Shown one piece after another: positions 1,839 through 36,791 of a stretch of DNA of 64,000 nt (positions within the stretch are counted from its first letter, which is position 1; each line of letters opens with the position of its first letter). The translations under genes were made by a program, and so were the position numbers. The DNA lies in IMG/VR virus record IMGVR_UViG_3300032075_000001, positions 1 through 64,000 of that record; one strand, written 5' to 3'. Source of the stretch: a virus. Its lineage: Duplodnaviria > Caudoviricetes. The notes under the pieces were generated by a model. The model did no database searches and was not told the DNA's origin. It saw nothing but the letters and a program-made list of their open reading frames with translations.

Positions 1839-2330
1839 ATGCGACCGGAACCGTCCATCGAACAGCCTCGCGATGTTTACAAAGTGTCGCAATGGAAATG
1901 GAATCTGGACGGCAGTGCGCCGCGCTGGCGTAAATTATTCTTCAATTGGATCTTTCTACCGTTTCTAAACTTCTCCTTCAGTCTCGGCATTCCCACCCCG
2001 AAGGAGGCGGTGATTGAATCCGACGAGAATGGCAACACCCGCAAAACCTATCGCTGGTTTGAAGACGAGGGAATCTTTGAAGACGCAGATCAAGCCGACG
2101 CTGGCTGCTTAGCCGAGCACTGGGGCTACTGTCGGCTTCCCCTGGGCCGACTAATGCCGCCCGATTCCGCGCAATACTCCGGTACGATCTTTCCGCGCAA
2201 AAAGAATCCGAACAGGTGGGCCAAGCCGACTCTCTCGCTCGTCATCAAGGATCGCAAGCAGGAAGAACAGCAGGAACAAACCCTAGCCACCACTCTCGCT
2301 CGACTAAATCAGGTCTTAGATCGTCGATGA
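1839..2330 (+). CDS. Hypothetical protein
   Basis: 163-aa ORF tightly coupled to neighbours. Confidence 0.6.
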   Translation: MRPEPSIEQPRDVYKVSQWKWNLDGSAPRWRKLFFNWIFLPFLNFSFSLGIPTPKEAVIESDENGNTRKTYRWFEDEGIFEDADQADAGCLAEHWGYCRLPLGRLMPPDSAQYSGTIFPRKKNPNRWAKPTLSLVIKDRKQEEQQEQTLATTLARLNQVLDRR

Positions 2331-2333
2331 ATC

Positions 2334-2744
2334 ATGCAGCTAGACACCTCGACCATCCCTCACGGCCTAATGCAGATTCTCGGGCTATTGCTTGCATCAT
2401 CCCTTGGATGGGTAGGTGGATGGCTGACGCGACGCAAGCGTGAGCCTGTTGAGATTGCGAAAATCTCCGCTGAAACCAGACAGATAACAGTCAATACTGA
2501 CGTGAGCTTAATTCAAGCTGCGACATCGGCGATAACAAAAGCTGAGCGACTTCAGGACGAGCGTGATCACTGGGAAAGAAAGGCTACTGATTTGATGCTC
2601 GACTTGGAGAATGAGCGTAATCGCAGCGCGCAGCAAGCGACTAGACTAACCCTGCACGAGCATCAGATGAAGCGGTTGAAGGGACTGCTGGACGCGCACG
2701 AGATTAGCTATAGCGAGACCGATAAACCGCGCTCCTCAGACTAA
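2334..2744 (+). CDS. Holin/spanin-like membrane protein (N-terminal TM + coiled coil)
   Basis: TM segment LMQILGLLLASSLGWVGGWL followed by RRKRE and a coiled coil. Confidence 0.5.
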   Translation: MQLDTSTIPHGLMQILGLLLASSLGWVGGWLTRRKREPVEIAKISAETRQITVNTDVSLIQAATSAITKAERLQDERDHWERKATDLMLDLENERNRSAQQATRLTLHEHQMKRLKGLLDAHEISYSETDKPRSSD

Positions 2745-26609: not shown

Positions 26610-26698
26610 TGCTGGCGGAAGGACTCGAACCTTCATCACGCCCTAATCCGGGGCTTACGGATTATAAGTCCGCCGCACTGCCATTGTGCTACGCCAGC
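26610..26698 (-). tRNA. tRNA-Ile(UAU) with an atypical 22-nt variable arm
   Basis: GCTGGCG/CGCCAGC acceptor, GCAC/GTGC D stem, GCGGA-CTTATAA-TCCGT anticodon arm, GAAGG-TTCGAGT-CCTTC T arm; no encoded CCA. Confidence 0.85.
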
Positions 26699-31019: not shown

Positions 31020-31694
31020 ATGGACAACGCACTAGACCGCGACACTGCTGGTAGTATTGCTCACAACGCAAGTGCTATCGTTAAACTGCAAGGTGAGATT
31101 GCCAATGCTGCTGATCTGATCAGGGTGTTGGATTCACTACCGCTAGGCGAGGCAACTATAACGGTTTCTACTTTCGTTCGACAGGAACCTTACTCTTGCG
31201 CCATTTCAAACGCCTCGGCGATTTGCTTACTACGCGAGTCGATTGAGATGAAGCAGCAATACATTAAGACTCTCAGTGACTGGCTGCGATCTGCGTTGAA
31301 CGAATAGCAGCGCACATACCCGTCAAGTTCTATTGTATACTGCGCGACGATGGACACCGTTCCTGAATATCCCTTCGACCTTTTGTCGAGAATCCGTGAG
31401 CGAATCGTTAAAGACGTTGACGCGAATGGTAGAACTTATCGCTGCTCGTCTGAACTTTCAACCGCGTTTGCCGGATGGAGCCACGAGCAGATTGATGAAT
31501 GGGCCATTGAGCACGGTTTGGTAATCATCGCTCAACCCGATCGTCGAATTGTAATCATGCGCGTTACGCCGGATAGCTTAGCGCCGTTGATAGCCATCGT
31601 CGGGAAAACTGAGGCGCTTGAGCTTCAACAGTTTGCGCGTGAGCGCGTACGTGCAGAAGTAGACGCGATGGACTGGTCGGACATTATCGAATGA
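31020..31694 (+). CDS. Two hypothetical genes upstream of TerL (31020-31307, 31350-31694)
   Basis: SD AAGGAGG before ATG 31020; second ORF overlaps the TerL start. Confidence 0.6.
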
Positions 31695-34090
31695 GCGACG
31701 ATCTCAATCTCCCACCATCCCTCCGTCTCAAGCACCTCTGGCCCATCGAGGACAAGCTGGAGGATGCGCGGCGACAGCGACTCAAGGGCGGCGGGTTGAT
31801 TCGTCCCGCTCTTCACGAAGCGCAGAAGAAGATGAAAGCTGAAGCGCGCAGGTTCAATGTTGCTGCGTTAGGCCGACGCGCGGGTAAGTCAGTATTCGGT
31901 CAGGATGTCAGTGGCGACTATCTCATGGCGGGTTGGCCTGTCGGGTGGTTCGCACCCTCATACAAGATTCTCGCAGATAGCTGGCGCGACTTACAACGAG
32001 TGTTCGCTCCAGTGACAGTGGACAAATCCACGCAGGAGCATCGACTGGAACTCTCGACGAAAGGGGTGCTGGAGTGCTGGTCGCTGGACAATCCCGACGC
32101 AGGTAGAAGTCGCAAGTACAAGCTGGTGATCGTTGACGAAGCAGCCCTCGTGCGTTATCTGGGAGATGCATGGCAAGCGTCAATTCGACCCACTCTCACT
32201 GACTATCAAGGTGATGCGTGGTTCCTCTCCACTCCACGTGGCTCGAACTTTTTCCGCACGATCTACAACTGGGGACAAGATCCACTCAAAGACGAATGGC
32301 GCTCGTGGCAGATGCCGTCGTCGGTCAATACTACCCTCACCGATCTCGACAAAGAGATCGAAGCGGCGCGATTGGAACTGCCGGAGCGCATCTTTCGACA
32401 AGAGTATCTGGCTGAGTTCATCGACGACGCGGGTGGAGTGTTTAGACGAGTGCTCGAATCAGCTTGTGCCACTGCTCAAGACTCAGCCCTCGATGGACAT
32501 AACTACCTGATCGGAATCGACTGGGGCAAGTATAACGATTTCACGGTGCTGAGTGTAATTGACGTGACGACGAAGGAGTTGGTCTACGTGGATCGCTTCA
32601 ATCAGATCGACTACACCGTGCAGATTGAGAGGTTGCGCACGCTCGCCACGAAGTTTAAGACGAAGACTCTCATCCCTGAGCACAACTCCATCGGCATTCC
32701 GCTGATTGAGCAACTCCAGCGTGAAGGCTACAACGTCCACCCATTTACGACCACGAATGCGTCTAAAGCTGAAGCGATAGACTCGCTCGCGCTTGCGTTG
32801 GAGAAAGGCGATTTGCGCATAATTGATAACCCAGTACTGATTGCTGAATTGCAAGCCTATGAAGCTGAGAGATTGCCGAGTGGGATGCTGAGATATTCGA
32901 GCCCGGAAGGTTATCACGATGACTGTTTGCCGCAGGGAACGCTGATTAAAACATTGACTGGCTATCGTCCAATTGAAGAAGTCCAACCCGGTGATCAGGT
33001 GCTTACTCATCGCGGTCGCTATATGCCCGTAGAGAGGGCGATTACCAAGCCCTTCTCGGGCCTGTTTTATGATTGTAAATTTAGAAATCAGCTAGAACTG
33101 TCGCTGAGCCACAATCACCCAATATTGGCTGTCTGCCGCGACTACACCGGCGATGTCTCTGGTCCATTTACACGCGAGCAGTGGGTATTACCGGGCGACT
33201 GGCGTAAATCTTACCGTGCGGTAACGGTAGTTGAATCTCCAGTACTGCGTGTTGGCGATGTACTGACAGAACGTGAGTTTTACACCAATGGGAAATGCGC
33301 GGTGAATATCAAGTTGCGAGAACTGCAACTTGATGAAGGATTTGCAAGCTTGCTCGGGCGCTTTCTTGCCGATGGTCACTGTTCCAATTCTTCGGGCTGG
33401 ACCATGAGCCTCGCATTTAACGTTAAAGATGTGCATTCGATTGAGTACTTTCGCTACTATCTCAACTTGCTGAGAATTTCTAATAGAGCGGAGAAGGCGC
33501 GAAGTAACTGCGTGGCCTTAACGTTTTCCAGTAAGCTATTATGGCATGCCCTGAAGACCTGTTATTCATCCTCCGGCGAGAAACAGCTCCCGCCTTACTT
33601 TCACCGTTTACAAGTTCACGGTAAAACAGTGGTAGATGAATGGTTGGCTGGCGATGGTTGGCACCGTCCTCCACACGTAACGCAACCGAACGGCGTTACG
33701 GTTCAGTCTCCCGGCTACACGATAGGTGCGACCACAAGTGCGCGACTGGCTTTAGGAATGCGAGATCTAGCTCTCGCAAATGGGCTATACGCAACGGTAA
33801 GAAAATATGAGCGGCGGCGTTACGAAAAGTCTACTAAGCCTCAATATTGGGTTACGATAAAAGAAGACGGTTCCGAGAATAATCATTCCCGAAAGCTCTC
33901 TCCGGTTAGTTACGGCTCTCCCGTGGAGACTATTGCCGAACGGCAATTTGAAGGCACGGTCTATAATCTTCAAGTTGCCGAAGATAGATCATTTATAGCG
34001 AATGGCATCGTGGTCCATAATTGCGTCATCAGCCTCGCCCTCGCATGGCACGGAGCCAGCATCAGGCCGAGACGGGTGCTGTATGCGTAG
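31691..34090 (+). CDS. terL: Terminase large subunit, intein-containing
   Basis: Walker A GRRAGKS, Walker B LVIVDEAA, nuclease IGIDWG and HDD|CV. Confidence 0.96.
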   Translation: MSDDLNLPPSLRLKHLWPIEDKLEDARRQRLKGGGLIRPALHEAQKKMKAEARRFNVAALGRRAGKSVFGQDVSGDYLMAGWPVGWFAPSYKILADSWRDLQRVFAPVTVDKSTQEHRLELSTKGVLECWSLDNPDAGRSRKYKLVIVDEAALVRYLGDAWQASIRPTLTDYQGDAWFLSTPRGSNFFRTIYNWGQDPLKDEWRSWQMPSSVNTTLTDLDKEIEAARLELPERIFRQEYLAEFIDDAGGVFRRVLESACATAQDSALDGHNYLIGIDWGKYNDFTVLSVIDVTTKELVYVDRFNQIDYTVQIERLRTLATKFKTKTLIPEHNSIGIPLIEQLQREGYNVHPFTTTNASKAEAIDSLALALEKGDLRIIDNPVLIAELQAYEAERLPSGMLRYSSPEGYHDDCLPQGTLIKTLTGYRPIEEVQPGDQVLTHRGRYMPVERAITKPFSGLFYDCKFRNQLELSLSHNHPILAVCRDYTGDVSGPFTREQWVLPGDWRKSYRAVTVVESPVLRVGDVLTEREFYTNGKCAVNIKLRELQLDEGFASLLGRFLADGHCSNSSGWTMSLAFNVKDVHSIEYFRYYLNLLRISNRAEKARSNCVALTFSSKLLWHALKTCYSSSGEKQLPPYFHRLQVHGKTVVDEWLAGDGWHRPPHVTQPNGVTVQSPGYTIGATTSARLALGMRDLALANGLYATVRKYERRRYEKSTKPQYWVTIKEDGSENNHSRKLSPVSYGSPVETIAERQFEGTVYNLQVAEDRSFIANGIVVHNCVISLALAWHGASIRPRRVLYA
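32924..34021 (+). mobile_element. Intein with LAGLIDADG homing endonuclease (366 aa)
   Basis: Starts CLPQGTLI, block B SHNHPI, LLGRFLADG and EWLAGDG, ends VYNLQV...VVHN followed by Cys+1. Confidence 0.96.
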
Positions 34091-35461: not shown

Positions 35462-35490
35462 TTGACAAGATGTTGTGCACAGTGTATTGT
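35462..35490 (+). promoter_or_regulatory. sigma70-type promoter with NrdR-box-like site
   Basis: TTGACA-17-TATTGT; CAAGATGTTGTG at 35466-35477. Confidence 0.8.
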
Positions 35491-35511
35491 TCCTTTTCTA
35501 AATCTTAATCG

Positions 35512-36255
35512 TTGGAGAAGGAAATGCCAAAACTACATCAAATCATCGCTATCGAAGAAGACGCGAAGAACAAGATAGGATCTGTCACCGCAATGCTGGA
35601 ACGGGAAGCGTTAAAGCCCGATTCGTTTAACGGACTAGCTCGCACGTATCGACCAAAGGACGAAGGCGGTGAACCGCTACCTCCTGAACATAAGCGAGTA
35701 CAGTTAGACGCGCGTAAAGAAATTGACAAGTTCATCAAAGCCAAGACTGAATTGATCGACCTGACTGCGACGAAGGACTGGGCCAACATGGAAGCGCGGG
35801 CCGATGTGGAAGTTAACGGTCAGGTGATTCTTATAGCGGTACCTGTTACTCATTTGCTATTCCTAAGCAAGCAGTTGGACCACTTTCGTAACTACGTCGA
35901 GAAACTGCCTACGTTGGACGAATCCGAGGAGTGGAAAGTAGACCCATCAACCGGACAGTGGCGTACGGATATTACAACTCGCCACCGTACCGAGAAGATA
36001 GTTGACTTTAAGACTGTCTCAGAAGCGACGAAGGAACACCCGGCTCAGGTGGCCCAACTAACTAAAGACGTAACAGTCGGCTACTGGGACCAGACTAAGC
36101 TGTCGGCGGCGCTTCCCGTGCCGCAGAAAGAGGAACTGATTACGAAGATTGAGGAACTGCTTAGCGCGGTCAAGTTAGCACGCGGCAAGGCCAACGAGGT
36201 CGAAGCTCCGAGGCAAAAGATCGCTGACACGTTATTTGAATACGTGTTAGGCTAG
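35512..36255 (+). CDS. Uncharacterised protein directly upstream of the tRNA-like RNA (probable start ATG 35524)
   Basis: MPKLHQIIAIE...FNGLARTYRPKDEGGEPLPPE..VQ; helical ends and beta-rich middle; resembles a widespread DUF family from memory (unverified). Confidence 0.8.
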   Translation: MEKEMPKLHQIIAIEEDAKNKIGSVTAMLEREALKPDSFNGLARTYRPKDEGGEPLPPEHKRVQLDARKEIDKFIKAKTELIDLTATKDWANMEARADVEVNGQVILIAVPVTHLLFLSKQLDHFRNYVEKLPTLDESEEWKVDPSTGQWRTDITTRHRTEKIVDFKTVSEATKEHPAQVAQLTKDVTVGYWDQTKLSAALPVPQKEELITKIEELLSAVKLARGKANEVEAPRQKIADTLFEYVLG

Positions 36256-36259
36256 CGAG

Positions 36260-36493
36260 TGTGGAAGTTTTAATCTGAGGCTTAGGCTGAACATGAGAAT
36301 CAACCTATTCCACAGAATCTTAAACCGATCACTATCTGAATGAAGGTAAGCTAAAGCAAAACTAACAGTCCTATGCGTGGGTTCGATTCCCACCGGACGC
36401 TCCAAATATTACTTATGCGTCCGTAGTTCAGCGGTAGAACATGGGACATTGAAACTTAGCGCAATGGCAAGCCGGACACGGATATAGATGATC
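36260..36493 (+). ncRNA. Circularly permuted tRNA-like structured RNA (YrlA-like or two-piece architecture)
   Basis: T arm GTGGG-TTCGATT-CCCAC (36377-93), 3' acceptor CGGACGC+TCCA (36394-404), 12-nt linker, 5' acceptor GCGTCCG (36417-23), D arm GTTC-AGCGGTA-GAAC, closing stem GTCCTA/TGGGAC. Confidence 0.85.
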
Positions 36494-36498
36494 AAAAC

Positions 36499-36571
36499 CG
36501 CGACATAGCTCAACTGGCAGAGCGCAAGACTTATAATCTTGAGGTCGCAGGTTCGACTCCTGCTATCGCAA
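36499..36571 (+). tRNA. tRNA-Ile(UAU) with C1:A72 and C6:A67 mismatches
   Basis: D arm GCTC-AACTGGCA-GAGC, CAAGA-CTTATAA-TCTTG, GCAGG-TTCGACT-CCTGC; no encoded CCA. Confidence 0.85.
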
Positions 36572-36579
36572 ACTCAATG

Positions 36580-36620
36580 GGGCGGGTGGCTAGGGTAAGC
36601 TGCTCGCCCTGTAATCTTCT
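36580..36620 (+). terminator. Hairpin, probable intrinsic terminator
   Basis: 12-bp stem GGGCGGGTGGCT/AGCTGCTCGCCC followed by TGTAATCTTCT (weak U tract). Confidence 0.55.
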
Positions 36621-36624
36621 CGGG

Positions 36625-36654
36625 TTGACAATATCTTGTGGAACGGGCTATTCT
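36625..36654 (+). promoter_or_regulatory. sigma70-type promoter with NrdR-box-like site
   Basis: TTGACA-18-TATTCT; CAATATCTTGTG at 36629-36640. Confidence 0.75.
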
Positions 36655-36658
36655 AATC

Positions 36659-36760
36659 CCCGTCTCGCTGCTGTGTGCAAAGAGGAAGACGCCGCCTGCC
36701 AGTCAGGTGCTCCGTAAAACGGAACTAAGGGATCGCGGTTCGAGTCCGCGTCGGCGGGAC
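36659..36760 (+). pseudogene. Degenerate class II (Leu-CAG-like) tRNA
   Basis: Intact T arm CGCGG-TTCGAGT-CCGCG, GCCTG-CCAGT-CAGGT arm with a 5-nt loop, variable hairpin TCCGT-AAA-ACGGA, irregular acceptor. Confidence 0.5.
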
Positions 36761-36791
36761 ACCTAACAACGATTAAAATGGAGCGACGACG

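Follow-up and report, generated by a model that had tools for sequence, protein, structure and literature searches.

A permuted tRNA-like RNA and the DUF7873 protein gene form a conserved pair in phages and bacteria

What is a tRNA cloverleaf encoded in permuted order, with its 3' half ahead of its 5' half, doing directly downstream of a protein gene in a phage? The question is raised by a 64,000-nucleotide stretch of DNA from a tailed phage (positions 1 to 64,000 of the IMG/VR record IMGVR_UViG_3300032075_000001; the window, hereafter, is this whole stretch), a phage-like contig that has also been binned, as contig C744, with a metagenome-assembled genome that is 78% complete. The RNA in question lies in a non-coding stretch (36256-36620) that follows a gene for a protein of the family DUF7873. 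We propose, with moderate confidence, that it is a single-headed representative, carried by a phage, of a large family of structured non-coding RNAs that is inherited as a unit with DUF7873 and probably forms a ribonucleoprotein (RNP) with it. Comparative evidence supports a protein and a permuted tRNA-like RNA that would constitute one system, distinct from both Ro60/YrlA and tmRNA.

On a base-by-base reading, all of the coordinates that an earlier, sequence-only reading of the window had given for the permuted element hold. The equivalent of an anticodon stem (36368-36373 paired with 36442-36447) encloses, in order, a T arm (36377-36393), the 3' strand of the acceptor stem (36394-36400), U73-CCA (36401-36404), an A/U-rich linker of 12 nucleotides (nt; 36405-36416), the 5' strand that completes the 7-bp acceptor stem (36417-36423), and a D arm (36426-36440). 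There is no anticodon loop; the stem instead runs on into outer helices, in which 36350-36354 pair with 36456-36460 and 36327-36335 with 36484-36493. Both the minimum free energy and the centroid folds (ViennaRNA) recover this permuted cloverleaf. The 5' domain of the RNA contains a stretch that is invariant across the six closest relatives (the window included), as well as a helix of 36260-36266 with 36308-36314, whose short hairpin cap sits where two-headed relatives have their first module. ARAGORN and Rfam searches at gathering thresholds called only a normal tRNA(UAU) within 36256-36620, embedded in the same unit downstream of the permuted domain.

The product of the upstream open reading frame matches Pfam DUF7873 (PF25283) with an E-value of 6.7e-87 and 291.7 bits against a cut-off of 27, over profile positions 1-242 of 244. 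The sequence-only reading had taken this frame as 247 aa from TTG 35512; its likely start is instead the ATG behind GGAGAAGG, which gives a protein of the family's length. We collected 1352 homologues of 243-246 aa, and a profile search places the family at no fewer than 2,652 clusters at 50% identity. Carriers include Streptomyces, Acidobacteriota, Abditibacteriota, Myxococcota, and cyanobacteria, together with cultivable phages (of Gordonia, Arthrobacter, Rhizobium, Vibrio, and Klebsiella, and Ralstonia phage phiRSL1). Hundreds of Streptomyces species hold the gene and its RNA as a stable chromosomal gene, with no phage context seen.

Evidence that the RNA belongs to a family comes from 160 DUF7873 homologue loci drawn from species genomes and viral contigs, which were scanned with a structural pattern that demands a T arm, a loop-closed acceptor stem of 7 bp with perfect or nearly perfect pairing, and a D arm. 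In 148 of the 160 loci, at least one such module lies 3' of the gene at a distance of no more than 800 nt, and two modules were found in 94. In most family members, a single RNA of ~360-400 nt has two tRNA-like heads, of which the first has A73 and a class II D arm of Leu-like type and the second a D arm resembling that of bacterial tRNA-Gly. ARAGORN calls none of the family's permuted modules as a tRNA, and 20 family loci compared with Rfam matched no family but tRNA. RNAalifold, applied to 50 dereplicated sequences, predicted two outer helices in addition to the T, acceptor, and D stems, with compensatory changes in 28 of the 29 pairs; cells of this alignment were paired in 94.4% of cases, versus 61.5% in shuffles and 37-47% when partners were slid by one to three columns. 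The family equivalents of the two outer helices are 89% paired and show compensatory changes at every pair. At the level of the family, the fold is real and far beyond chance.

A covariance model of the homologues' 3' flanks, a step that the sequence-only reading had suggested, was built without the window in its training set (model R1), and the window's element scores 63.3 bits against it (E = 1.3e-13). The window's RNA has a module of the second type only, with a hairpin in place of the first. Single-headed forms recur elsewhere (e.g. at locus L017), so that the possession of one head marks a variant rather than exclusion from the family.

The association between gene and RNA is equally consistent. 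R1 finds matches in 96 of 100 non-training loci, and two of the four failures have less than 230 nt of 3' sequence; two loci (L100 and L101) showed no RNA within 3 kb. Matches also accompany all five distant homologues (27-32% identity) found by tblastn in cultured phages, namely Ralstonia phiRSL1, Rhizobium RHph_TM39 and RHph_TM16, Vibrio D491, and Klebsiella FBKp24, and the RNA is present in all five close relatives, at 75-82% protein identity. In the reverse direction, among 41 related genomes, DUF7873 occurs only in G000 and G061, and R1 matches above 60 bits were found only in these two, each just 3' of DUF7873. No protein gene other than DUF7873 is conserved in the neighborhood. Taken together, these counts establish the protein gene and the permuted RNA, which the sequence-only reading had placed in one operon, as a conserved pair. 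It is often found within phage tRNA clusters, and most chromosomal copies have no tRNA nearby. Pattern scans for further members of the window's own subfamily gave five chance matches, all in viral contigs; metagenome contigs gave none. We found no description of the pair in the literature searched, nor in Rfam. The coordinates of the unit and of the loci compared with it are collected in the table.

Table. Coordinates of the DUF7873-RNA unit in the window and of features compared with it (positions refer to the window unless a locus is named).
Feature	Location	Strand	Basis or remarks
Promoter-like site	35462-35490	+	-35 TTGACA, 17-nt spacer, -10 TATTGT; 10 of 12 consensus matches
DUF7873 gene	35524-36255	+	243 aa from ATG 35524 (likely start); open reading frame opens at TTG 35512
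5' domain of RNA	36257-36335	+	Alignments, fold, comparison with relatives' loci
Outer helices round tRNA-like domain	36327-36493	+	Centroid fold; family equivalents covary
Permuted tRNA-like domain ("module 2" type)	36368-36447	+	R1 model, covariation
Acceptor loop: U73-CCA and 12-nt linker with U at -1	36401-36416	+	Inferred site of RNase P cleavage and 3' trimming
Embedded unpermuted tRNA(UAU)	36499-36571	+	ARAGORN, Rfam
Terminal hairpin	36580-36609	+	G-rich loop (GGGUA-type) kept in relatives; unit probably ends or terminates here
Embedded tRNA orthologues	Window 36499-36571; L171:3993-4065; L172:3976-4048		Same-position tRNA in unit
Embedded tRNA orthologues	L174:3182-3257; L175:1807-1879; L176:1839-1911		Same-position tRNA in unit
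DUF6847-Ro60-YrlA locus (contig C225, genome G000)	L163:1499-1613; L164:244-2013, 2079-2537	-	

Within the acceptor loop, all six closest relatives keep UCCA and U(-1), with a linker of anywhere between 8 and 29 nt; their acceptor stems have six different sequences, in all of which the seven pairs are kept. Across the family, 43 of the 132 second modules encode CCA. Of these 43, 36 are viral; the CCA-encoding modules have longer loops and carry U(-1) in 35 cases. Fixed ends around a linker of changing length are what an excised spacer would be expected to show, and it is plausible that RNase P takes part in excising the linker and that a two-piece RNA would be left, as the sequence-only reading had supposed. 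A model for such processing is the YrlA RNA of Mycobacterium smegmatis, whose acceptor stem likewise has 7 bp and which, in vivo, undergoes RNase P cleavage and acquires CCA (PMC4201824). The two RNAs are alike in this stem and in their CCA end; they differ in that the mycobacterial RNA is Rsr-bound and gains its CA following nibbling, whereas the window's RNA encodes the whole CCA.

In conditional terms, the unit can be pictured as follows. Gene and RNA would be transcribed from the promoter-like site at 35462, and DUF7873 and its RNA would act together, probably as an RNP in which the non-tRNA helices hold the protein and the tRNA-like head is presented to tRNA-handling enzymes. In the phage subfamily, RNase P would cut before 36417 and 3' trimming would halt at the encoded CCA (36404), so that the RNA would be in two pieces and its tRNA-like acceptor end would be free; these enzymes would also release the embedded tRNA and thereby set the 3' end of the RNA. 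The sequence-only reading had described the whole as one promoter-to-terminator unit, of which the promoter-like site was found, but a consensus scan of the window called no terminator for it. The terminal hairpin is kept in relatives, and its U tract is weak.

Several observations weigh against an RNP of this kind. The window's RNA aligns to the core of R1 only (positions 40-119) and is without the family's UUAAACG motif. The RNA at locus L004 (5230-5377) lies 1.5 kb downstream of DUF7873, and that at locus L010 (4666-4802, minus strand) is on the opposite strand to DUF7873, ~0.9 kb away. Most chromosomal copies have an acceptor loop of 6-8 nt and no CCA, so that the family as a whole cannot work by exposing a CCA end. 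As for the protein, it is mildly acidic (pI 5.8; family median 6.3), and no recognizable RNA-binding fold was found in it with Foldseek, VIA-align, or the viral structure library BFVD. Asp, Glu, and His make up many of its invariant positions, on account of which DUF7873 may be an enzyme rather than a scaffold or passive RNA binder.

Structural comparison has so far placed DUF7873 near no other protein. Its AF2 model, which is confident (pLDDT 86.7), combines a bundle of helices with long beta hairpins. The best Foldseek matches in the PDB, to Cascade Cas7 chains (E = 3.5e-3, TM 0.14), are not read as kinship, nor are VIA-align Z scores of up to 8.1, which were obtained with designed helical proteins. 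BFVD gave no match below an E-value of 4e-3 and a sequence profile search of the PDB none below 0.2, and PHROGs yielded no family for the protein. A cluster of look-alikes of the model in the ESM Atlas has DUF6847 in 25% of its members (TM 0.48/0.63); kinship with DUF6847 was nevertheless dropped, given an hhalign probability of 0.2 and the occurrence of DUF6847 in only one of five other Ro60-bearing carriers, far from Ro60.

The alternative that survives best, though we consider it unlikely, is that the RNA acts only in cis, its folds guiding RNase P and RNase Z on the DUF7873/tRNA transcript to direct processing or stability, with no function in trans. Folds resembling tRNA are known to recruit RNase P or RNase Z in MALAT1-mascRNA, in mitochondrial t-elements, and in tRNA punctuation, and the embedded tRNA of the DUF7873 unit may likewise work as a processing signal. 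The layout of the window is consistent with this, given that the RNA is on the same strand as the gene, directly 3' of it and ahead of the tRNA, and that the consensus scan called no promoter between gene and RNA; the frequent placement of the pair in phage tRNA clusters points the same way. Those processing signals are simple, whereas the DUF7873 RNA is large, covaries throughout its helices, and goes with one particular protein gene; its five or more covarying helices and invariant single strands, maintained across phyla, exceed what a cleavage signal would need. Chromosomal copies, with their mostly closed loops and no nearby tRNA, fit poorly as well, as does the opposite-strand RNA of L010, and the record of Klebsiella phage FBKp24 annotates a promoter between the DUF7873 gene and the RNA. 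Nor does the element resemble the permuted tRNA genes of Cyanidioschyzon merolae and other organisms beyond the encoding of the 3' half before the 5' half and the linker that joins the acceptor ends. Those genes mature into true tRNAs with the anticodon loop at the junction, whereas the junction in the window continues into long conserved helices without such a loop.

It is less probable still that the phage RNA is an ordinary Y RNA using the Ro60 (Rsr) of its host, with DUF7873 a mere neighbor. To our knowledge, Y RNAs with a tRNA-like domain are known only as partners of Ro60. YrlA, the bacterial and phage Y RNA bound by Ro60/Rsr (RF02553; PMC4201824; bioRxiv 10.1101/312249), has the same permuted order as the window's RNA, a closed acceptor stem, no anticodon loop, and flanks that pair into long stems. 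The sequence-only reading had remarked on the lack of Ro60 in the window, which is correct for the window but does not extend to the genome bin, where contig C225 encodes a 589-aa Ro60 (vWA_Ro60, E = 2.4e-16; TROVE, 25.6 bits) with a canonical YrlA directly 3' of its gene (Rfam, 66.4 bits). This Ro60 was missed by a TROVE profile search of the genome and came to light through an R1 match to its RNA; that R1 gives the YrlA 56 bits indicates that the tRNA-like heads of the two RNAs are alike. The order at this locus is DUF6847 (DIP1984 family, PDB 3kdq), Ro60/Rsr, canonical YrlA, and a weaker second T-arm RNA. More broadly, a Ro60 vWA domain scores above cut-off in 11 of 30 carrier genomes, all among the 17 carriers that are not actinomycetes.

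The window's RNA is nonetheless not tied to Ro60 in the manner of YrlA. The GNCGAAN0-1G motif of the Ro60-binding strand has no match in 36256-36620 and is present in the C225 YrlA; the Rfam YrlA model aligns with the window's RNA from end to end at 34.3 bits, against a gathering threshold of 69 and nearly twice that score for the C225 RNA. None of the 13 carriers from the Actinomycetota has Ro60, and where Ro60 does occur in the 30 carrier genomes, it is hundreds of kb from DUF7873 and never adjacent. The RNA tracks DUF7873, not Ro60; it is present where Ro60 is absent, and most members of its family, unlike YrlA, carry two heads. Judged by this distribution, Ro60 is dispensable for the DUF7873 RNA. 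With the Ro60 motif absent, DUF7873 beside it, and Ro60 lacking from all 13 actinomycete carriers, the comparisons indicate that the window's RNA is a relative of YrlA in architecture and not a member of the Ro60-linked family, and identity with an already characterized YrlA, which the sequence-only reading had named among the outcomes that would undo its proposal, is not what we find.

The tRNA embedded in the unit has mismatches at C1.A72 and C6.A67 and no encoded CCA, and an orthologous unpermuted tRNA occurs in all six relatives, starting 57-58 nt after the D arm and ahead of the terminal hairpin. These six tRNAs have six anticodons (UAU, CAU, UGU, GAA, AUU, and UGA), with a mean difference of 0.16 of sites in the body and 0.69 in the anticodon, while U33, A37, and the C6.A67 mismatch are kept. 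Chromosomal copies in Acidobacteriota (L005, L009, and L012) similarly show GAA, GAG, and GUU on one tRNA body. A stable body with a shifting anticodon makes this a natural case of rapid re-aiming of a phage tRNA.

Such rapid change could reflect shifting demands or attacks, and would suit a model in which the RNA is a decoy or shield against factors that attack the acceptor end or elbow of tRNAs, with DUF7873 as helper and the embedded tRNA replacing a depleted species. That carriers include phages rich in tRNA genes, and that the CCA-encoding forms are mostly viral, is in keeping with it. We nevertheless give this model little credence, about as little as the ordinary Y RNA, given the stable chromosomal residence of the pair in Streptomyces; no defense or anti-defense family was matched either, in a search that did not take in the PADLOC library. 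The particular form suggested by the sequence-only reading, a decoy against anticodon nucleases, is unlikely because the domain has no anticodon loop.

The weakest proposal, that the two-piece RNA is charged with glycine after removal of the linker and serves with DUF7873 as an amino-acid donor or rescue factor, can be set aside as very improbable: the window does have G1-C72, C2-G71, G3-C70, U73, an encoded CCA within the UCCA that all six relatives keep, and a D arm of a type that we take to be common in bacterial tRNA-Gly, but four of the six close relatives depart from this in the first three pairs, G1-C2-G3 occurs in only two of these and in 18 of 132 family modules, the full set of U73, CCA, and GCG is found in 9 of the 132, and the anticodon determinants C35 and C36 have no place in a domain without an anticodon. 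The glycine identity inferred by the sequence-only reading is therefore not a conserved feature.

Its suggestion of ribosome rescue fares no better. Two-piece permuted tmRNA occurs in alpha-proteobacteria, cyanobacteria, and some beta-proteobacteria, and has in common with the window's RNA a piece with the 3' acceptor strand, T arm, and CCA that precedes the 5' piece, the intervening linker being excised in tmRNA. The window's RNA differs from it in having no tag frame, no pseudoknots, and no G3:U70, pair 3:70 being G-C, and in having a full D arm. ARAGORN found no tmRNA in the window, and only its T arm and acceptor match the Rfam tmRNA models, at 16-18 bits. The RNA is not a tmRNA.

Returning to the conserved DUF7873-RNA pair, its interest lies in the finding that the architecture of YrlA, usually doubled, is here tied to a different and highly conserved protein without a recognized fold. 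If the pair is an RNP, it would represent a large and unexplored class of tRNA mimicry that can be tested in model hosts. A bolder version, which we regard as doubtful, holds that this is a widespread, Ro60-independent RNP of a new kind, in whose phage forms a genuine CCA end exposed by RNase P would be charged, tagged, or attacked instead of the tRNAs of the cell, and the adjoining re-aimed tRNA would be part of the device. In the public record of Klebsiella phage vB_KpM_FBKp24 (NC_061421.1), a feature annotated as "tRNA-Sup-TTA" overlaps the second permuted module of the DUF7873 RNA at its T arm, 3' acceptor strand, and ACCA (L186:2266-2345); it is probably a mis-annotation, by which part of a DUF7873 RNA is labeled a suppressor tRNA.

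Other features of the window may be noted. Upstream of the unit lies a gene for the large terminase subunit with an intein (31691-34090; matches to Hint and intein-splicing domains). Downstream, a second promoter-like site (36625-36654) shares the extended motif of that at 35462 and is followed by an odd tRNA-like RNA (36625-36768) with a standard T arm, a long extra hairpin, and a 6-bp acceptor-like stem offset by 2 nt; this RNA is called by neither ARAGORN nor Rfam and was not seen in the close relatives. The window also encodes, on the minus strand (26610-26698), a second tRNA with the anticodon UAU, 89 nt in length, whose long variable arm of class II type is unusual for an isoleucine tRNA.

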